Source: a virus (lineage: Duplodnaviria; Heunggongvirae; Uroviricota; Caudoviricetes). From it: 9,587 bases of DNA. The position numbers were made by a program, and so were the translations under genes. The notes under the pieces were generated by a model. That model made no database searches, was not told the origin of the DNA, and worked only from the letters and a program-made list of their open reading frames with translations. Positions within the stretch are counted from its first letter, which is position 1, and every line of letters starts with the position of its first letter. Below, piece by piece: positions 1,391 to 9,021 of the stretch. The stretch covers positions 1-9,587 of the IMG/VR virus record IMGVR_UViG_3300011888_000033; one strand, 5' to 3'.

Positions 1391-1555
1391 CTTATCTATC
1401 CCCTTAACGCCGGGTGGCGGAACTAACTGCTGCACTGCAAAATTTGAATCCCGCCGTCATGTTCATACGCCTCGGGCTGGCTACTTAACCCCTGACCACT
1501 GCCTGGTAACTCGAAGTATTGCCCGGCGTTCTGTGGGGCGGGGTGGGTTGGTAGG

Positions 1556-1606
1556 TATATAATGTACTTTGTGTTCATCATTGTAAAGTACTTTAAGTAC
1601 ATTTTA
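1556..1606. promoter_or_regulatory. OL-like operator/promoter region left of the repressor gene
   Basis: AT-rich block with a perfect TATAAT (1558..1563). Dyad elements: AATGTACTT (1561..1569), the perfect 10-bp palindrome AAAGTACTTT (1585..1594), and AAGTACATT (1595..1603), which is the reverse complement of the first. The same ATGTACT 7-mer recurs twice in the racR-ydaS intergenic region. Confidence 0.4.
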
Positions 1607-1677
1607 TGTATAAAAAAATGAGACGGGATAAAGTGAAGCACAAACCCGGAGGGGGACGCTACCGGATTTATGCTGGT

Positions 1678-2097
1678 TTAAGAGGCTTTTTGTTTTTTCT
1701 TTCGTGCTAACTCTTCGTAAATTGCATTGTACTTCTGTTTTTTCTCCTCAAGAGTTTTTAAAAGTTCATCTGTCTCACTGTCAGGGAGCTCGTCCAGAAG
1801 GTCAATGATGATTTTTTGTCTTGGATTTAACTCCTGATAGAAACGTATCTGTCCACTTTCTTCTGTATCCTCTCCCAAAAGATAGGTTGGTGTTGTTCCA
1901 ATGAGTGTTGCTAATTCCCTTAATTTCTCTCGGCGAGGAATTGTTTCACCATTAAACCATTTGCTAACCGCTTTTGGTGTTAATTTCATTCGACGGGCAA
2001 TTTCTGCCTGCCTTCCATGTTGTTCATAACCAGCGTTTTCACAGGCTAGCGCAAGCCTACTGGCGAACTCTTTACGCGCTTTATCTTCATGAACCAT
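1678..2097 (-). CDS. racR: Prophage immunity repressor, HTH (XRE-like), RacR-like
   Basis: Track ORF, 139 aa. HTH-like segment QAEIARRMKLTPKAVSKWFNGE. Divergently arranged with the Cro-like gene across a short operator-bearing spacer. Acidic/basic C-terminal tail. Confidence 0.7.
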   Translation of the reverse strand: MVHEDKARKEFASRLALACENAGYEQHGRQAEIARRMKLTPKAVSKWFNGETIPRREKLRELATLIGTTPTYLLGEDTEESGQIRFYQELNPRQKIIIDLLDELPDSETDELLKTLEEKKQKYNAIYEELARKKKQKAS

Positions 2098-2176
2098 AAG
2101 TTCAATGATATTCGCTCTTGAATGTACTGTCAGTTCTGTTATAGCATGTACTCAAAGTTCACATTGTGAGGGTGAT
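2098..2176. promoter_or_regulatory. OR-like divergent promoter/operator region between racR and ydaS
   Basis: 79-bp spacer between divergent starts. ATGTACT appears at 2122..2128 and 2146..2152 (direct repeat, 24 bp apart). Small dyads ACTGtCAGT (2126..2134) and CACAtTGTG (2160..2168). GAGGG RBS sits just before the ydaS ATG. Confidence 0.45.
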
Positions 2177-2431
2177 ATGAACCAGAAAACACTTGAAGAT
2201 GTAATCAAAACTGTTCGCGTTTCTGTTGTGGCCGACGTTTGTGGTGTCAGCCAAAGAGCAATCTACAAATGGATGGATAACGGAAAATTGCCTCGCACAG
2301 AATATACCGGCGAAACAAATTACGCTGAAAAAATCGCTCATGCATCAAACGGATTATTTTCTGCCGATGCAATTTTAACTATTGGCAGAAATAAAACTAC
2401 TACGAAAAAGCTGATGGGAGTTGATTCATGA
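2177..2431 (+). CDS. ydaS: Cro-like HTH regulator, YdaS-like (84 aa from the chosen start)
   Basis: In-frame part of track ORF 2105..2431. I prefer the ATG at 2177 (GAGGG RBS), because the ATG at 2105 would place the start 8 nt from the racR start with no room for a promoter. HTH-like VADVCGVSQRAIYKWMDNGKLP. Its stop overlaps the ydaT start (ATGA at 2428..2431). Confidence 0.6.
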   Translation: MNQKTLEDVIKTVRVSVVADVCGVSQRAIYKWMDNGKLPRTEYTGETNYAEKIAHASNGLFSADAILTIGRNKTTTKKLMGVDS

Positions 2432-2850
2432 AAATCAAGCATGAGCACATCGAATCAGTGTTGTTAGCCCTGGCAGCCGAGAAAGGGCAGGCGTGGGTCG
2501 CTAACGCAATTACTGAAGAATATCTGCGCCAGGGGGGCGGCGAATTGCCCCTGGTACCAGGCAAGGACTGGAACAATCAGCAGAATATCTATCATCGTTG
2601 GTTGAAAGGTGAAACGAATGCGCAAAGGGAAAAAATTCAGAAACTGATCCCTGCGGTTCTGGCAATTCTTCCTCGCGAGCTGCGTCACCGACTCTGCATC
2701 TTCGATACCCTGGAACGCCGTGCATTACTGGCGGCACAGGATGCACTGAGTACGGCAATTGATGCGCATGATGATGCAGTCCAGGCCGTTTACCGTAAAG
2801 CACATTTCAGCGGCGGCGGTTCTCCTAGCGATTCTGTCGTAGTGCATTGA
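2428..2850 (+). CDS. ydaT: YdaT-like protein (toxic partner of the RacR-YdaS-YdaT cassette)
   Basis: Track ORF, 140 aa, which matches the Rac YdaT length as I recall it. Translationally coupled to ydaS through the ATGA overlap. Synteny racR / ydaS-ydaT. Confidence 0.65.
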   Translation: MKIKHEHIESVLLALAAEKGQAWVANAITEEYLRQGGGELPLVPGKDWNNQQNIYHRWLKGETNAQREKIQKLIPAVLAILPRELRHRLCIFDTLERRALLAAQDALSTAIDAHDDAVQAVYRKAHFSGGGSPSDSVVVH

Positions 2851-2895
2851 TTGAAATTAATCGTACCGAACTGTTTTGTTCGGTATCAGTTAAAT

Positions 2896-2914
2896 GTAAC
2901 GCTGCGAGCGTTAC
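2896..2914. repeat. 19-bp dyad-symmetric repeat GTAACGCT-gcg-AGCGTTAC, copy 1 (non-coding, just upstream of the ydaU RBS)
   Basis: Perfect 8-bp inverted arms around a 3-bp spacer, followed by ACAA. Same motif at 3088..3106 and 3295..3313. Confidence 0.6.
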
Positions 2915-2927
2915 AAGGTGAAAACAA

Positions 2928-3716
2928 ATGGCTTCAAACTGGATAAAGCTCGAAGTTATTACGCCGGATAAGCCGGAAATATTCAGGCTTGCTGAGATTC
3001 TGAATATTGATCCAGATGCCGCATTAGGGAAAGTCATTCGCTTCTGGGCCTGGGCGGATCAACACATGATAGACGGTAACGCAGAGTGTAACGCTCGCGG
3101 CGTTACAAAAAGTGCAATAGATCGCATCACTTTTATGGCTGGTTTTGCTGATGCGTTAATTCAGGTTGGATGGCTGGTCGAAACTAATGGTGTGTTGTCG
3201 CTTCCTAACTTTGAGCGCCATAACGGGAAAAGCTCTAAAAAACGGGCGGTTACAAACGAGAGAGTAACAAAAATACGAGAACTGAAACGAAAAGGTAACG
3301 CTGCCAGCGTTACAAAAACGGATCAAAAAGCGTTACCAGAGGAAGAGAAAGAGGAAGATATAAATACTTATCTCCCCCTAAATCCCCCTCGCCAAAAACG
3401 AGCGTCTAAAAAATTCGAACCGGAGGCTATCGAGCTGCCTGACTGGTTGCCGGAAACACTCTGGCATGAGTGGGTTCAGTTCAGGCAGGCATTGCGAAAA
3501 CCGATTCGAACGGAGCAGGGCGCTAACGGGGCGATACGGGAGCTGGAAAAATTCCGCCAGCAGGGTTTTTCACCTGAGCAGGTGATTCGACACAGCATCG
3601 CCAACGAATACCAGGGCTTGTTCGCGCCGAAAGGTGTTCGACCTGAGACGTTACTCCGACAGGTTAACACCGTCTCGTTACCGGATAGTGCGATCCCGCC
3701 AGGCTTCAGGGGGTAA
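2928..3716 (+). CDS. ydaU: Replication initiation protein (O-like / YdaU-like)
   Basis: Track ORF, 262 aa. Sits immediately upstream of the DnaC-like loader gene. Has a central low-complexity basic/acidic linker (KSSKKRAVTNERVTKIRELKRKGNAASVTKTDQKALPEEEKEED). The dyad repeats lie inside and just before the gene, recalling lambda ori inside gene O. Confidence 0.65.
   Translation: MASNWIKLEVITPDKPEIFRLAEILNIDPDAALGKVIRFWAWADQHMIDGNAECNARGVTKSAIDRITFMAGFADALIQVGWLVETNGVLSLPNFERHNGKSSKKRAVTNERVTKIRELKRKGNAASVTKTDQKALPEEEKEEDINTYLPLNPPRQKRASKKFEPEAIELPDWLPETLWHEWVQFRQALRKPIRTEQGANGAIRELEKFRQQGFSPEQVIRHSIANEYQGLFAPKGVRPETLLRQVNTVSLPDSAIPPGFRG
3088..3106. repeat. 19-bp dyad repeat GTAACGCT-cgc-gGCGTTAC, copy 2 (inside ydaU)
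   Basis: 7 of 8 arm positions are symmetric. A left half-site GTAACGC lies at 3076..3082. Followed by ACAAAAAG. Confidence 0.55.
3295..3313. repeat. 19-bp dyad repeat GTAACGCT-gcc-AGCGTTAC, copy 3 (inside ydaU)
   Basis: Perfect 8-bp arms. Right half-sites GCGGTTAC (3246..3253) and AGCGTTAC (3329..3336) nearby. Followed by an A-rich stretch. Confidence 0.55.
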
Positions 3717-3722
3717 CTGACC

Positions 3723-4412
3723 ATGAAAAATATTGCGACAGGCGACGTTCTTGAACGTATCCGCAGACTGGCCCCGTCACATGTAACCGCGCCATTCAAG
3801 ACGGTAGCGGAGTGGCGCGAGTGGCAACTTTCCGAAGGCCAGAAACGTTGTGAGGAGATCAACCGTCAGAATCGTCAGTTGCGGGTGGAAAAAATTCTGA
3901 ATCGCTCTGGCATCCAGCCATTGCACCGCAAATGCTCGTTTTCGAATTACCAGGTGCAGAACGAAGGGCAGCGATACGCGTTGAGTCAGGCGAAATCCAT
4001 CGCTGATGAACTGATGACCGGGTGTACAAATTTTGCGTTCAGCGGAAAACCTGGTACCGGGAAGAACCACTTAGCGGCAGCTATCGGGAATCGCCTGCAC
4101 GCCAGCTATGACGACGGGCAGTCAGGCGAAAAATTTTTGCGGGAACTGTGCGAAGTGGATCTGCTGGTTCTTGATGAAATTGGCATTCAGCGCGAGACGA
4201 AAAACGAGCAGGTGGTACTGCACCAGATTGTTGATCGCCGGACAGCGTCGATGCGCAGCGTGGGGATGCTGACAAACCTGAACTATGAGGCCATGAAAAC
4301 ATTGCTTGGCGAGCGGATTATGGATCGCATGACCATGAACGGCGGGCGATGGGTGAATTTCAACTGGGAGAGCTGGCGTCCGAATGTCGTCCAGCCAGGA
4401 ATTGCGAAGTAA
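3723..4412 (+). CDS. ydaV: DnaC-like helicase loader (IstB/DnaC AAA+ ATPase), YdaV-like
   Basis: Track ORF, 229 aa. Walker [16 protein letters not shown], Walker [10 protein letters not shown], and a DnaC-like C-terminus ([22 protein letters not shown]...[10 protein letters not shown]). The ATG is 6 nt after the ydaU stop. Confidence 0.8.
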
Positions 4413-5437: not shown

Positions 5438-7507
5438 ATGAAAGGTAATATTCTTGGGGATATCCGAGCTGAACATGACGAAAAGATGTTGGAAGCTTCA
5501 TTTTGGCAAACAACTGATTATAAAGCTCTTCTCGAATCCTACGATCGATGCATCATTGTTGGCCGCAGAGGAACAGGAAAAAGTGCTCTGGTGCATATGC
5601 TTTCCAAACATTGGCATGCTAAGCCAAAAACCTATGTGATGACTATTAGTCCGGTTGAAGAACAAATTATTGGATTAAGGGATGTTATTTCTTTATTTGG
5701 TGAAAATTACTTACATATAAAAGCCGGTAGCAAGTTAGCATGGCGATATGCTATTTATATGGAGCTGCTTTCTGAGATCGCAAGTCATTACAAGATGAAA
5801 AACGATCTTGACTACAAAAGTGTAGAGTCGCATTTATTATCTTGGGGACCGAAGAGACAAAATATAAGTAGCAAAATAAGAAAAAAATTGAACGCTATTC
5901 TCGATGATAACAAAAATATAAAACCAGCTACAAGAATAGCCGAATTATCCGATAAATTTGAACTTGACTTATTGGAAGAGGTGATAGAAGAAGCAATTTC
6001 GAAGTCAAATAATCAATTTGTTATTTTTGCTGATAGGCTTGATGAAGGCTATACACCGGATAATCTTGGTGTTGCAATAGTTGATGGTTTCATTCAGGCT
6101 GTGATTGATATAAAACAAAATATGAATGAAAAGGTTATTGCCTTTGCATTTGTTAGAGATAATATTCATCGAGCCATATCAAAAATGGACCCTGATTTTA
6201 CTCGAAATATTGAAGGGCAAGTACTGAGATTACATTGGGATGAATATAACTTGTTTAATCTTGTATGCAATAGAATGAGGGTCGCTTTTAACTCAACCAT
6301 TGAGAACAACACGAGGGTGTGGAATGCTTACACCGCAAATGAATTACAGTCTAATACCGGTTTTAAAGAAACATTGAAACTGACTCTATATAGGCCAAGA
6401 GATATTTTGGTTTTGTTAAATAATGCATTCTTGCGAGCAAACACACATGATCGTAATCGTATTGTCATTGATGACATTCAAGCAACAGCGAATACTATTT
6501 CACAAAATAGACTCAATGATTTGTTAAAAGAATATGAGAATGTATTTCCTGCATTAGATATATTTACATCGCAATTTGCTAATAGCAAACCTTACTACAG
6601 TGTTTCTGAAGCGTCATCTAAGATACAATATGCCCTTGATCTCAATGGCGTTATTGACAAGATGAAAATGCAGGATTTACTTCTTTTTGAAGGGCCAATC
6701 CAGGTGATTCAACGACTTTACAGTGTTGGATTTATTGGGTTGTATAACCAGCAGTCATCTTCATATGTATTTTGCCATGACGGTAAGGAACCTGAAAAAG
6801 AATTTACACCAGATTCAAAATTGCTATTGCATCCATGCTACTGGCTAGCATTAAGTGTTCATGAATCAGAGATGACTCCCGATGCTGCTGATGATATTCA
6901 TGATGAATATGATATTGAGGTCAGCTCTGTTTCCGAAGAGCAGAGGAAACAACGAATCGGTTCGTTGCTCCAAGAACTACATAATATACCTGAAGGACCT
7001 GAAGGTGCTGTCGATTTTGAAGCATGGGCGCTCAAAACTATAAAGTTACTATTTGCTACGAATTTAACGAACATTGAGTTGCATCCCAATAAAAATGGGT
7101 TGCAGCAAAGAGATATTATAGCGACAAATATAGCTGACACTCCAGTTTGGAAGAGAATTCTGACAGATTATCAGACACGGCAAGTTGTTTTTGAAGTGAA
7201 AAACTATAAAACATTAGGTGCTGCAGAATATAGACAGGTAAATTCCTATTTGTTTAAAGACTATGGGCGGATAGCTTTTATCATAAATAGAGATCACACA
7301 GAGAATTTAGAAAAACATAAAGAGCTTACGTGGGTAAAAGAAATTTATGATAATCATAATAAATTAGTTGTGAAGTTACCCTCTAAGTTCCTTGAAAGGC
7401 ATCTGTCAAAAATGAGAAGCCCGCAAAAACATGACGAAGTTAATAAACAATTAGGTAAACTGCTCGATCAGTACATAAGGGTCTATTTAAATAATAAATG
7501 TAAGTAA
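5438..7507 (+). CDS. Candidate anti-phage defence protein: N-terminal P-loop ATPase fused to a C-terminal PD-(D/E)xK-like nuclease (689 aa); family not assigned
   Basis: Single long track ORF with AAGGA RBS 6 nt upstream. Visibly AT-rich relative to flanking prophage genes. Walker A GRRGTGKS (aa 42-49, nt 5561..5584). Walker B-like VIFADRLDE (nt 6020..6046). C-terminal motif DFE(528)AWALK ... RD(559)IIATN ... VVFE(586)VK(588)NYK (nt about 7013..7201) fits the E/D/ExK catalytic pattern of restriction-endonuclease-fold nucleases. Followed by an intrinsic terminator. Confidence 0.75.
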   Translation: MKGNILGDIRAEHDEKMLEASFWQTTDYKALLESYDRCIIVGRRGTGKSALVHMLSKHWHAKPKTYVMTISPVEEQIIGLRDVISLFGENYLHIKAGSKLAWRYAIYMELLSEIASHYKMKNDLDYKSVESHLLSWGPKRQNISSKIRKKLNAILDDNKNIKPATRIAELSDKFELDLLEEVIEEAISKSNNQFVIFADRLDEGYTPDNLGVAIVDGFIQAVIDIKQNMNEKVIAFAFVRDNIHRAISKMDPDFTRNIEGQVLRLHWDEYNLFNLVCNRMRVAFNSTIENNTRVWNAYTANELQSNTGFKETLKLTLYRPRDILVLLNNAFLRANTHDRNRIVIDDIQATANTISQNRLNDLLKEYENVFPALDIFTSQFANSKPYYSVSEASSKIQYALDLNGVIDKMKMQDLLLFEGPIQVIQRLYSVGFIGLYNQQSSSYVFCHDGKEPEKEFTPDSKLLLHPCYWLALSVHESEMTPDAADDIHDEYDIEVSSVSEEQRKQRIGSLLQELHNIPEGPEGAVDFEAWALKTIKLLFATNLTNIELHPNKNGLQQRDIIATNIADTPVWKRILTDYQTRQVVFEVKNYKTLGAAEYRQVNSYLFKDYGRIAFIINRDHTENLEKHKELTWVKEIYDNHNKLVVKLPSKFLERHLSKMRSPQKHDEVNKQLGKLLDQYIRVYLNNKCK

Positions 7508-7639: not shown

Positions 7640-7765
7640 GTGCAGGTTGCAAGGAAAGACCTCTGCGAGGTACGAATCCGAACCGACCAGACGGAGGTCG
7701 CTGTCTTCACAGCTTACGAACTTGGGGAGTAAGAGGACCAGCGGGGAGAAATCCCCGCAACCTCT
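7640..7765 (+). other. GC-rich hairpin-dense non-coding element inside the AT-rich island (candidate structured RNA); strand and function unknown
   Basis: No credible ORF. 7-bp stem with GAAA tetraloop (7741..7758). Hairpin GACCTC.../...GAGGTC (7658..7665 with 7692..7699). Hairpin CTTAC/GTAAG (7713..7717 with 7729..7733). Possible closing helix AGGTT/AACCT (7644..7648 with 7759..7763). A perfect TATAAT sits at 7582..7587 upstream. Confidence 0.25.
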
Positions 7766-8195
7766 GATGTATTATGCATCCTCAACGCAGCCACAGTTAA
7801 CCTGATTGGCGGGTTTACTTCATCTGTAAATATTTTTATAAAAATAATGCCCACGCACAGCATAAAACAAAAAGTATTACAGATAAAAAAGGAACGTAAT
7901 GTACAGATTTGTTGTTTTCCATATTTACTCACCTTAATATGATTAACCCTGATAGGGCTGTTATTTCAGCGGTTTTCAAATGAGATATTATGGTGATCTG
8001 ACAAATTTGCATAACATTAAAATTTAATTTGTTTAACCGCTTTTAATAATAAGCGTTGTTTGTATCCCAGCAATCTGTTGTTTGGTCTTTATTCCATTAA
8101 GGTGGGGGCTTTACACTGGAACCAGTTTATTTATACTTTATACGTCAGCCTGAACAACTGGCATCTGCTGCACTGCGCCATCGAGAGATTGAGAA

Positions 8196-8894
8196 ATGGC
8201 GCATATACAACTGGTCAAACAAACTTCTTCTGGTTTACTTCTCCCGGCGACGCCGGAGAGTTGCGATTTTCTGCATCAAATCAAAATAGGTGAGTGGATA
8301 CACGCAGACTTTAAGCGTGTGCGTAACTACGCATTCCACAAGCGTTTTTTCAAACTCCTGCAACTGGGATTCGATTACTGGACTCCGGTCGGTGGGGCGA
8401 TCACGCCTCGCGAACGAGAACTGCTGTCTGGTTTCGTTGATTACCTGTGCGAATCAGTTGGTCGGGAACACACGCCAGCCCTGAGTGATGCCGCAGAGCA
8501 ATACCTTAACACCGTTGCGACTCGTAGAACCCGGGATACGGCGTTGCTAAAGTCGTTTGAGGCTTTCCGCGAGTGGGTAACCATTCAGGCCGGATTTTAC
8601 ACCGAGCATATTTATCCGGACGGTAGCCGTGGGCGTCGGGCAAAATCCATCGCTTTTGCGAATATGGACGAAGTCGAGTTTCAGCAGGTTTATAAATCTG
8701 TACTGAATGTGCTGTGGAACTGGATTCTGTTCCGTAAATTCTCCTCTCAGGAGGAAGTTGAAGATGTGCCAGATCAGAATCCCTGGCTACTGCAATCACA
8801 ATCCCGAAACCTCTGTGCTGGCGCATTACAGGCTGGCGGGGACGTGCGGAACAGCGACAAAACCACACGATATGCAGGCGGCGATAGCCTGTAG
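8196..8894 (+). CDS. Conserved lambdoid nin-region protein (possibly DUF1367-like); function unknown
   Basis: Track ORF, 232 aa, normal GC content. Position upstream of a YbcO-like gene and a Q-like gene fits a nin-region gene. Its 3' end overlaps the next gene by 131 nt, so the true stop may be earlier or there is a frame problem. Confidence 0.45.
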   Translation: MAHIQLVKQTSSGLLLPATPESCDFLHQIKIGEWIHADFKRVRNYAFHKRFFKLLQLGFDYWTPVGGAITPRERELLSGFVDYLCESVGREHTPALSDAAEQYLNTVATRRTRDTALLKSFEAFREWVTIQAGFYTEHIYPDGSRGRRAKSIAFANMDEVEFQQVYKSVLNVLWNWILFRKFSSQEEVEDVPDQNPWLLQSQSRNLCAGALQAGGDVRNSDKTTRYAGGDSL

Positions 8895-9021
8895 CTCATG
8901 CCACGATCTAATCGACGGGCGGGTAAAAACCAGCGATTACACCAAAGAAGAATTGCGCCTGATGCATGCTGAAGGGGTTTTTCGCACACAAGAAATCTGG
9001 AGAAAGAAAGGTCATTTATGA
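8764..9021 (+). CDS. YbcO-like small Cys-rich putative nuclease (DUF1364-like)
   Basis: Part of track ORF 8707..9021. AGGAGG lies 8 nt before the ATG at 8764. MCQIRIPGYCNHNPETSVLAHYRLAGTCGTATKPHDMQAAIACSSCHDLIDGR resembles DLP12 YbcO as I recall it (CQVRIPGVCNGNPETSVLAH...TKP...IACSACHD). Alternative start at ATG 8707. Stop overlaps the next gene (ATGA at 9018..9021). Confidence 0.55.
   Translation: MCQIRIPGYCNHNPETSVLAHYRLAGTCGTATKPHDMQAAIACSSCHDLIDGRVKTSDYTKEELRLMHAEGVFRTQEIWRKKGHL

Follow-up and report, generated by a model that had tools for sequence, protein, structure and literature searches.

Is the three-gene segment at positions 1678-2850 of this Rac-family prophage, in which a leftward repressor gene diverges from two overlapping rightward genes, the repressor-toxin cassette of E. 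coli K-12 Rac, or an immunity region of another type? K-12 studies published in 2017 reported that racR is essential and that ydaS and ydaT are toxic, and a sequence-only reading of the present DNA named the three genes accordingly, proposing that the repressor must silence two toxins and that the ensuing addiction helps to retain the prophage and its cargo. In later work (Jobling 2018, Jurenas 2021, Gucwa 2023, Wons 2025), YdaS is taken as an analogue of Cro and YdaT as an analogue of CII. Here we conclude that the segment is very probably an intact, ordinary lysis-lysogeny (immunity) region of a Rac-family lambdoid prophage, with an immunity type unlike that of K-12 Rac. The lambdoid bistable switch as such is textbook biology. 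The window referred to below is the whole stretch of DNA analysed (9,587 nucleotides).

Gene layout and integrity of the segment

The segment comprises the following genes:

1678..2097, minus strand: cI-type prophage repressor, 139 aa, with an HK022 cI-like HTH and a DicA-like helical C-terminal domain, no S24 peptidase
2177..2431, plus strand: Cro-type regulator, 84 aa, HK022 Cro-like, outside the YdaS family
2428..2850, plus strand: ydaT, 140 aa, Rac-type CII functional analogue (Pfam, PHROG, K-12 orthology)

All three ORFs are full length, and the ORFs, their divergent layout and the ATGA stop/start overlap between the 84-aa gene and ydaT (2428-2431) are real, as first described; RefSeq annotates the same ORFs in strains 7/2 and H10 and flags none of them as a pseudogene. 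The segment is the H10 sequence except for one synonymous change in ydaT (position 2481). Near-identical relatives hold a full-length prophage, including lysis, terminase, capsid and tail genes, at the ttcA site. Downstream of ydaT lie replication genes (2928-4412; O-like and DnaC-like), so that the whole has the make-up of a lambdoid cI/cro/cII region: a divergent repressor/Cro-like pair, a predicted multipartite operator over both promoters, a pL operator set, a CII-like gene, and then replication genes. A search for RNA families (Rfam, gathering thresholds) returned none anywhere in the window, and among the three proteins toxin-antitoxin families gave no match other than a legacy Pfam name.

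Identity of the repressor

The N-terminal part of the repressor (Pfam HTH_3, 37.9 bits) is 46% identical to residues 3-99 of HK022 cI (E 9e-32), and the protein also aligns over 112 aa with K-12 DicA (28% identity, E 8e-15), the homology lying above all in the C-terminal domain. Within the repressor, the segment TPKAVSKWFNGE is invariant among homologues, its HK022 counterpart being TPKAISKWFNGE. Among homologues that share this DNA-binding domain, some have an S24 domain and others a short helical one; the present protein is of the latter kind, with an all-helical AF2 model (pLDDT 82) and no match to Peptidase_S24 (HK022 cI, 69.5 bits). Because this autocleavage domain is missing, RecA should not flip the switch directly, and the repressor is probably unresponsive to RecA.

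The proposal that this protein is RacR does not hold. BLASTP aligns the two over only 33 residues, 12 of them identical and all within the HTH, and the NCBIfam RacR equivalog model NF049929 (cutoff 200 bits) gave no match at E<=0.01; K-12 RacR, one of the K-12 proteins used as positive controls for the curated HMMs, scores 244.6 bits. The DicA subfamily model NF007257 matches residues 29-137 at 56.4 bits (E 2.7e-15), under its 101-bit cutoff, so that the repressor is homologous to DicA yet outside the DicA subfamily as the curated cutoff defines it. Foldseek comparison of the model with the PDB gave matches to the N-terminal HTH only; full-length resemblances to SinR, an arbitrium-system repressor, a Salmonella phage repressor and DdrO were weak and non-significant (all E>1e-3). 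The C-terminal domain has no solved relative, and its role in oligomerisation is putative. PADLOC returned generic HTH matches only (RmrA, CapH).

Identity of the Cro-like protein

The 84-aa protein, whose ATG is preceded by a Shine-Dalgarno GAGG 5 nt upstream, is 62% identical to HK022 Cro over 73 aa (E 1e-34). It had been taken for YdaS, a name that finds no backing here: BLASTP against K-12 YdaS gave an 18-residue alignment with six identities, and neither the 84-aa protein nor a 108-aa extended ORF matched Pfam YdaS_toxin PF15943 (gathering cutoff 30 bits) at E<=0.01, K-12 YdaS itself scoring 107.7 bits. A PDB sequence search with the Cro-like protein gave nothing meaningful, and it does not align with DicC.

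Replacement of the immunity module

The genes sit in a block with the following limits:

1554..2421, no strand: swapped immunity module, its flanks 92-99% identical to K-12, the module without detectable K-12 Rac similarity

By blastn, the window matches K-12 Rac at positions 3-1553 (99.0%) and 2422-2848 (92.3%), with no match between. By the sequence comparisons above, a repressor and partner of HK022/DicA type have taken the place of RacR and YdaS, and ydaT is the sole true orthologue of K-12 Rac among the three genes. Krishnamurthi 2017 read the occurrence of "ydaT without racR" as loss of the intergenic region; in this case the alignment identifies it as a clean swap of immunity modules. 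Consequently, racR and ydaS names copied by position from K-12 would be wrong in the window, as would conclusions on essentiality or toxicity derived from them.

The right-hand junction of the swap coincides with a predicted binding site for YdaT:

2421..2438, no strand: YdaT-box TTGATTCATGAAAATCAA, a perfect inverted repeat (TTGATT, spacer CATGAA, AATCAA) over the ydaT start codon, with the cro stop TGA in the spacer

Because the swap ends on this box at the ydaT start, it created the ATGA overlap. The earlier comparison with the Rac arrangement therefore stands for layout, position and the intact Rac-type ydaT, and fails for the overlap, since in K-12 the ydaS stop lies 22 nt before the ydaT ATG. 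K-12 Rac is otherwise alike in prophage family, in the ttcA integration site (as seen in the relatives), and in the gene order repressor, Cro-like gene, ydaT, replication genes, whereas its repressor and Cro-like proteins are unrelated to those of the window beyond the HTH and its operators differ.

The module is carried by 1047 of 5426 complete E. coli genomes. In 618 genomes the HK022/DicA-type module is joined at the YdaT-box junction to a Rac-type ydaT, in 410 the same junction joins it to a ydaT of only 32% identity, and in K-12 a different module is joined at the same point. Tritos (prophage 3 of E. coli LF82) has an identical YdaT-box junction sequence. Tentatively, the YdaT-box together with the first eight codons of ydaT, roughly 30 bp in all (TGATTCATGAAAATCAAGCATGARCACATC), could be a conserved recombination linker for the exchange of whole immunity modules among E. 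coli lambdoid prophages; on the same tentative footing, the chimaeric non-cleavable repressor (HK022-specificity DNA-binding domain plus DicA-type C-terminal domain) would give about a fifth of E. coli strains constitutive, SOS-independent immunity to HK022-type phages.

Predicted operators and promoters

A scan with the operator half-site pattern TGWAC-N5-GTWCA found six sites in the window (0.89 expected; none of 200 shuffles reached six), five of which flank the repressor gene. Together with promoter-like sequences, the features are, from left to right:

1559..1587, minus strand: pL-like promoter (TTTACA-17-CATTAT), 9/12 in the consensus scan, overlapping both oL sites; putative function, from position
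1563..1577, no strand: oL-type operator TGTACTTTGTGTTCA, exact match to the half-site pattern; the HK022 oL is TGTACTTAAAGTTCA
1587..1601, no strand: second oL-type operator AGTACTTTAAGTACA, centred 24 bp from the first; the second HK022 oL is AGTACCAATAGTACA, also at 24-bp spacing
2090..2104, no strand: oR3 TGAACCATAAGTTCA, over the repressor start codon; 15-mer identical to oR3 and oR1 of HK022 and HK75
2105..2133, minus strand: pRM-like promoter (CTGACA-17-TATCAT), 10/12 in the consensus scan; putative function
2118..2145, plus strand: pR equivalent (TTGAAT, 16-nt spacer, TATAGC), placed by alignment with the annotated pR of HK022 and the pR region of HK75
2123..2137, no strand: oR2 TGTACTGTCAGTTCT, two differences from HK022 oR2 (TGTACTATCAGTTCC); 33 bp from oR3, as in HK022
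2147..2161, no strand: oR1 TGTACTCAAAGTTCA, fits the half-site pattern exactly; distance to oR2 24 bp, the HK022 value

The predicted sites thus form the HK022-type arrangement of three operators at oR and two at oL, with the HK022 centre-to-centre spacings (33/24/24 bp), and in an alignment of the oR region with HK022 and HK75 the mean column identity is 88%. In HK022 and HK75, as in the window, oR3 overlaps the repressor start codon. The operator and promoter assignments are predictions from homology and consensus; the pR equivalent, a weak match below the consensus-scan threshold, is assigned by homology only. Only 7 nt separate the end of the -10 element of the pRM-like promoter from the repressor ATG, so the mRNA would be leaderless or nearly so. 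The half-site scan found no OFR-like site downstream of cro.

The enrichment of operator sites also bears on the reading that the three genes have no regulatory role and are ORFs by chance or decayed pseudogenes. That reading is already refuted by conservation and expression data: the ORFs are full length with matches to RefSeq proteins in hundreds of genomes, ydaT has a dN/dS of 0.096 relative to K-12, and the CI of Tritos, identical to the present repressor at 138 of 139 residues, is expressed in the lysogen 24-fold over local background.

ydaT and its predicted binding sites

YdaT is 94% identical to K-12 YdaT (132/140 aa) and matches Pfam PF06254 (43.1 bits; cutoff 21 bits) and PHROG 163, a CII-like activator (5.4e-36), with 8bt1 and 3c4r as PDB relatives; PADLOC gave no match. 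The low dN/dS indicates that the gene is under purifying selection. H56 and R57 (with W58), assigned to DNA binding by Wons 2025, and L107 and A110, assigned there to the tetramerisation helix, are all kept. As to inactivating changes relative to K-12, ydaT is intact, and the 84-aa gene is not ydaS.

The YdaT-box is the sole zero-mismatch site in the window. K-12 has a box likewise on the ydaT start codon, ATGATTCATGAAAATCAA, footprinted by Wons 2025, which begins with A where the window box begins with T; the CP-933P consensus is TTGATTN6AATCAA. Further candidate sites with two or three mismatches occur at chance level (17 vs 10.6 expected). No YdaT site was found in the repressor-cro intergenic region: the footprinted K-12 racR-ydaS sites have no counterpart there, and K-12 PracR4, which lies inside ydaS, is likewise missing. 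A consensus scan near the YdaT-box found no pRE-like or YdaT-dependent leftward promoter. Two terminator-like minus-strand hairpins (2864-2885 and 2932-2955) were considered as an oop-like antisense element; hairpins of this kind are present at chance level.

Proposed working of the switch

In the switch that we propose, the repressor, with its HK022-type DNA-binding domain and DicA-type helical C-terminal domain, would bind the three oR (2090-2161) and two oL (1563-1601) operators, shutting off pR (cro, ydaT and the replication genes) and pL (kilR, recET, xis and int) while keeping up leaderless transcription of its own gene from the pRM-like promoter. Counter-repression would fall to the 84-aa HK022-type Cro. 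YdaT, as the CII analogue, would bind the perfect inverted repeat that spans the start of its own gene and presumably raise leftward transcription of the repressor gene while lysogeny is being established. The switch would be SOS-independent, with no direct flip by RecA. Loss of the repressor would harm the host, as in any lysogen, because the whole prophage would be derepressed (lytic genes, KilR, YdaT), the action of YdaT on the host RcsA regulon being one contributor.

Toxicity, essentiality and retention of the prophage

How much of the K-12 cassette, with a repressor essential for silencing two toxins and addiction as the means of retention, can be carried over to this locus? We consider that reading very improbable. 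It draws on the fit of layout and position to K-12 Rac, on the orthologous and intact ydaT, on the 2017 reports of racR essentiality and ydaS/ydaT toxicity, and on the finding that K-12 YdaT at high level kills cells through RcsA; given that the key K-12 residues are present, K-12-like toxicity of this ydaT allele on derepression is plausible, the rcsA region of the host lying outside the window. Against it, the repressor is not RacR and the Cro-like gene is not ydaS, so that the K-12 essentiality data transfer by analogy only; YdaS proved non-toxic on re-test (Gucwa 2023), as is the YdaT of CP-933P; later studies give YdaS and YdaT Cro and CII roles; and there is no sign of the defining traits of toxin-antitoxin addiction, namely differential stability or protein-protein neutralisation.

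The idea that addiction retains the prophage runs against what is known of K-12, where low RacR induces int/xis, excision of Rac relieves YdaT toxicity and rescues the cells, and deletion of the whole of Rac is viable. Loss of the whole element is therefore unpenalised there, and such a module would at most penalise loss of the repressor alone. Anyone who sets out to engineer or cure this prophage has to deal with a repressor of the DicA/HK022 type that is probably RecA-unresponsive.

Comparison with related systems

The HK022/DicA-type immunity region is a mosaic with respect to the systems that it resembles. HK022 and HK75 share its operator half-sites along with the repressor DNA-binding domain and Cro, whereas HK022 cI (235 aa as translated here) carries the S24 autocleavage domain that the 139-aa window repressor lacks, and HK022 has a lambda-type cII in place of ydaT. 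With DicA of K-12 Qin (135 aa) the repressor shares a two-domain architecture, a similar length and a homologous C-terminal helical domain, but its partner gene is not DicC-like and its DNA-binding domain is nearer to that of HK022 cI.

Tritos has essentially the same module (97.5% DNA identity). Its downstream YdaT, in contrast, is of the CP-933P type and only 32% identical to that of the window, and its left arm is Qin-like (dicB, DicF) where that of the window is Rac-like. Tritos forms both virions and plaques. In LF82, CRISPRi against the prophage repressors had a reported detrimental effect with each of the four prophages, Tritos included, and Tritos was absent among the prophages induced by ciprofloxacin or trimethoprim, a single negative at one dose and time point. 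The records vB_EcoS-666R9, 673R7 and 613R10, whose module is 100% identical to that of the window, were also considered as evidence of a viable phage; the title of the sole paper naming them places them in carbapenemase-producing clinical isolates. As these are prophage sequences, they were left unused for this purpose and Tritos was taken instead.

The logic of a divergent repressor, a Cro analogue and a CII analogue is shared with PaaR2-YdaS-YdaT of CP-933P and with cI-cro-cII of lambda. In both, a multipartite operator lies over pR and pRM, and the cI and PaaR2 mRNAs are leaderless, as proposed for the window. In CP-933P, YdaT has its binding site, TTGATTN6AATCAA, where the Cro-like gene ends. 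The operators of both systems differ from those of the window, and CP-933P has a paaA2-parE2 toxin-antitoxin pair behind the repressor, which is missing in the window. Apart from the recognition helix, lambda CII and YdaT have unrelated structures.

State of the prophage

Two deletions in the window are not present in H10, 7/2 or K-12: ydaV (DnaC-like) has lost 57 bp in frame directly behind its Walker A region, and 64 bp are missing from the DUF1367/DUF1364 junction, including the DUF1367 stop and the DUF1364 start. On their account the prophage may be defective and the switch may no longer yield phage. They are also what speaks for a domesticated remnant, defective in replication or packaging, whose repressor is kept only because derepression would express YdaT, KilR and Xis/Int; the result would be a K-12-like cryptic state with filamentation and excision and no phage release, and K-12 Rac behaves in exactly this way. 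We judge this unlikely for several reasons. The window covers only 9.6 kb, with the late genes out of view, and a run of 10 inserted N points to a draft assembly, in which both deletions could be artefacts. Moreover, apparently complete prophages carry the identical module and the viable phage Tritos a near-identical one, and a remnant would alter only the downstream consequence and not what the module is.

Gene content relative to K-12 Rac

The segment is an intact, ordinary lambdoid immunity region of the HK022/DicA type (named after phage HK022 and the Qin prophage repressor DicA of K-12), joined to a Rac-type ydaT. It holds three open reading frames (ORFs).

Open reading frames of the segment.
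1678-2097, minus strand: repressor ORF, 139 aa
2177-2431, plus strand: Cro-like ORF, 84 aa, Shine-Dalgarno GAGG 5 nt upstream
2428-2850, plus strand: ydaT ORF, 140 aa

The sequence-only reading had described an intact RacR/YdaS-YdaT cassette with a divergent repressor and a coupled gene pair. Both intactness and layout are borne out: the minus-strand repressor faces two plus-strand ORFs joined by an ATGA stop/start overlap (2428-2431), RefSeq calls the same three proteins in near-identical genomes (WP_000233319, WP_001072342, and WP_000693803; none flagged as a pseudogene), and the only difference from E. coli strain H10 is a synonymous base at 2481 in ydaT. Two of the three gene names, however, were wrong. 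Protein comparisons were made against Rac of K-12 MG1655, with the K-12 proteins as positive controls for the curated models. YdaT kept its name, being identical to K-12 YdaT at 132/140 residues and passing Pfam PF06254 (43.1 bits vs. a cutoff of 21); judged by these alignments, it is the only orthologue of K-12 Rac among the three proteins. Alignment of the repressor with K-12 RacR was confined to 33 helix-turn-helix residues (12 identities), and it did not match the NCBIfam RacR equivalog (cutoff 200 bits), on which K-12 RacR scores 244.6 bits. Likewise, the 84-aa protein aligned with K-12 YdaS over 18 residues and did not match Pfam PF15943 (K-12 YdaS, 107.7 bits). DNA identity with K-12 is 99% over 3-1553 and 92% over 2422-2848 (ydaT), while the DNA between 1553 and 2422 has no similarity to K-12. 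Given that K-12 ydaS stops 22 nt before the ydaT ATG, the ATGA overlap is a product of this swap, and does not reproduce the Rac arrangement as had been proposed.

An HK022-type immunity module

Comparison with phage genomes (blastn) revealed ~70% identity between window 1937-2347 and the cI-oR-cro region of phages HK022 and HK75. HK022 cI is 46% identical to repressor residues 4-102 (E 9e-32), and HK022 Cro is 62% identical to the 84-aa protein (E 1e-34). On alignment, the annotated HK022/HK75 operators and the window intergenic region share 88% mean column identity.

Putative operators and repressor promoter.
2090-2104: oR3, TGAACCATAAGTTCA, 15-mer identical to HK022
2123-2137: oR2, TGTACTGTCAGTTCT, 2 differences from HK022
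2147-2161: oR1, TGTACTCAAAGTTCA, half-sites as in HK022
1563-1577: oL, TGTACTTTGTGTTCA, half-sites as in HK022
1587-1601: oL, AGTACTTTAAGTACA, half-sites as in HK022
2133-2105, minus strand: pRM-like promoter, CTGACA-17-TATCAT

Downstream of the repressor gene, a pL-like promoter overlaps the two oL sites, and operator centre-to-centre spacing (33, 24, and 24 bp) is exactly that of HK022. TGWAC-N5-GTWCA occurs six times in the whole window, and five of these occurrences are the putative operators (0.89 matches expected; 0/200 shuffles reached six). We infer that the repressor binds these operators and that the promoters are used. Because only 7 nt separate the end of the pRM-like promoter from the start codon of the repressor and no Shine-Dalgarno sequence is present, a leaderless repressor mRNA is implied, as for lambda cI and PaaR2.

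Whereas HK022 cI carries an S24 autocleavage domain (69.5 bits), profile searches found none in the window repressor. Its C-terminal 50 residues are instead homologous to DicA (28% identity over 112 aa, E 8e-15), and the NCBIfam DicA model aligns with residues 29-137 at a score under its cutoff. Database homologues share the DNA-binding domain with invariant TPKAVSKWFNGE; those with an S24 domain (235-240 aa) occur in Raoultella and Klebsiella, and those with a short helical domain, as here, in E. coli and Salmonella. The AF2 model is all-helical (pLDDT 82), and Foldseek returned HTH-domain matches only, the C-terminal domain having no significant match. A repressor of this architecture would be SOS-independent.

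YdaT and the module junctions

On its right-hand side the swap ends at 2421/2422, at the left edge of a perfect inverted repeat.

2421-2438: YdaT-box, TTGATT-CATGAA-AATCAA, sole zero-mismatch match in the window

The YdaT-box of CP-933P has been defined as TTGATTN6AATCAA (Prolic-Kalinsek 2023), and that of K-12 footprinted as ATGATTCATGAAAATCAA, across the ydaT ATG (Wons 2025). In the window the cro stop codon falls inside the box spacer, hence the ATGA overlap. YdaT retains H56, R57, W58, L107, and A110, with a ydaT dN/dS vs. K-12 of 0.096 (22 synonymous and 8 non-synonymous codon differences); the allele is plausibly toxic. K-12 additionally has a reverse promoter, PracR4, within ydaS, and YdaT sites in the racR-ydaS intergenic region; site and consensus scans of the window found counterparts of neither.

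The box plus the first eight ydaT codons (MKIKHEHI; window 2421-2452, L001 3678-3709, L006 3868-3899) is conserved at the DNA level between YdaTs otherwise only 32% identical and coincides with module breakpoints, and may therefore be a recombination linker. The other mosaic joint has a second box-like site, an imperfect one (2847-2864, TTGATTGAAATTAATCGT, 2 mismatches) overlapping the ydaT stop; 2-mismatch matches in the window are at chance level. This joint lies directly downstream of ydaT, such that swapped segments flank the gene on both sides: K-12 ydaU is 93.5% identical to the C-terminal half (3343 onward) of the O-like replication initiator ORF at 2928-3716 but shows no similarity to the N-terminal half (window 2849-3342).

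Toxicity and prophage retention

In papers of 2017, racR was reported to be essential and both ydaS and ydaT to be toxins. Jobling (2018) argued that the ydaS and ydaT products are analogues of Cro and CII, and that no lysogen can do without the repressor of its prophage. CP-933P was subsequently found to follow CI/Cro/CII logic with a non-toxic YdaT (Jurenas 2021), and Wons (2025), mapping YdaT sites, described YdaT as a CII analogue. In K-12, YdaT is toxic via RcsA and YdaS is not toxic; RacR shortage raises xis/int about 100-fold, leading to Rac excision and rescue of the cells (Gucwa 2023). The repressor is thus probably required to keep harmful genes silent, as had been suggested, but this is ordinary and true of any lysogen, and the K-12 data transfer to the window for YdaT only. 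Retention of the prophage through addiction, the further idea, is unsupported, since losing the entire element carries no penalty and, in K-12, is the escape route.

Distribution and relatives

The module alone occurs in 1047/5426 complete E. coli genomes (K-12 racR-ydaS type, 1085), joined to a Rac-type ydaT in 618 and to a Tritos/CP-933P-type YdaT (32% identical) in 410, with identical junction sequence in both joinings. Strains with ydaT but without racR were interpreted by Krishnamurthi (2017) as having lost the intergenic region; judging from the window, what they carry is a replacement immunity module. In near-identical genomes (H10 and others, 99.8%) a full-length prophage lies at ttcA, with int/xis, recET, kilR, sieB, replication, Q-like, lysis, terminase, capsid, and tail genes. 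Tritos (E. coli LF82 prophage 3) has a module 97.5% identical to the window (CI, 138/139); it yields virions and, on MG1655, plaques, and imaging shows a siphovirus. Expression of the Tritos CI is 24-fold over local background, and silencing of LF82 prophage repressors by CRISPRi was reported to be detrimental "across conditions and phages". The prophages that ciprofloxacin or trimethoprim induced did not include Tritos, a single negative observation that fits a non-cleavable repressor.

Possible defects and neighbouring cargo

Relative to all close relatives, the window has two deletions and an insertion. A 57-bp in-frame deletion in ydaV (3723-4412), not present in K-12, strain 7/2, or H10, lies at 4094-4098 between CCTGC direct repeats, just past the Walker A motif, and shortens the DnaC-like loader YdaV from 248 to 229 aa; it could render the prophage replication-defective, or else be an assembly artefact. 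A 64-bp deletion at the DUF1367/DUF1364 junction (8762-8768, between ATGTG repeats; ORFs 8196-8894 and 8707-9021), which takes out the stop of DUF1367 and the start of DUF1364, is not present in H10 or 7/2. Finally, a 10-N run within sieB (1033-1042), an insertion vs. H10, where the flanks are contiguous, shifts the reading frame; it appears to be masking or the placeholder for a scaffold gap and not biological. The copy in the window may thus be defective, or its source a draft assembly; in either case only the consequence of derepression is altered, and the nature of the module stays as described.

A low-GC island (0.30-0.40) carries a gene (5438-7507) whose 689-aa product is a P-loop ATPase of the Sll1717 family (NCBIfam NF047389, 254.7 bits). 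The C-terminal region of the ATPase has a match in PADLOC to the candidate defence protein PDC-M36A (3e-11). The gene is probably a moron with anti-phage function, the "cargo" of the sequence-only reading. The island occupies the position of the DUF977/KilA-N/hok block of strain 7/2, and just past the ATPase gene (window 7647-7780 vs. L007 27672-27779) H10 is annotated with a 5'-truncated Hok/Gef pseudogene, a remnant of the hok locus found in 7/2, which suggests that the island inserted beside, or into, a hok/sok module.
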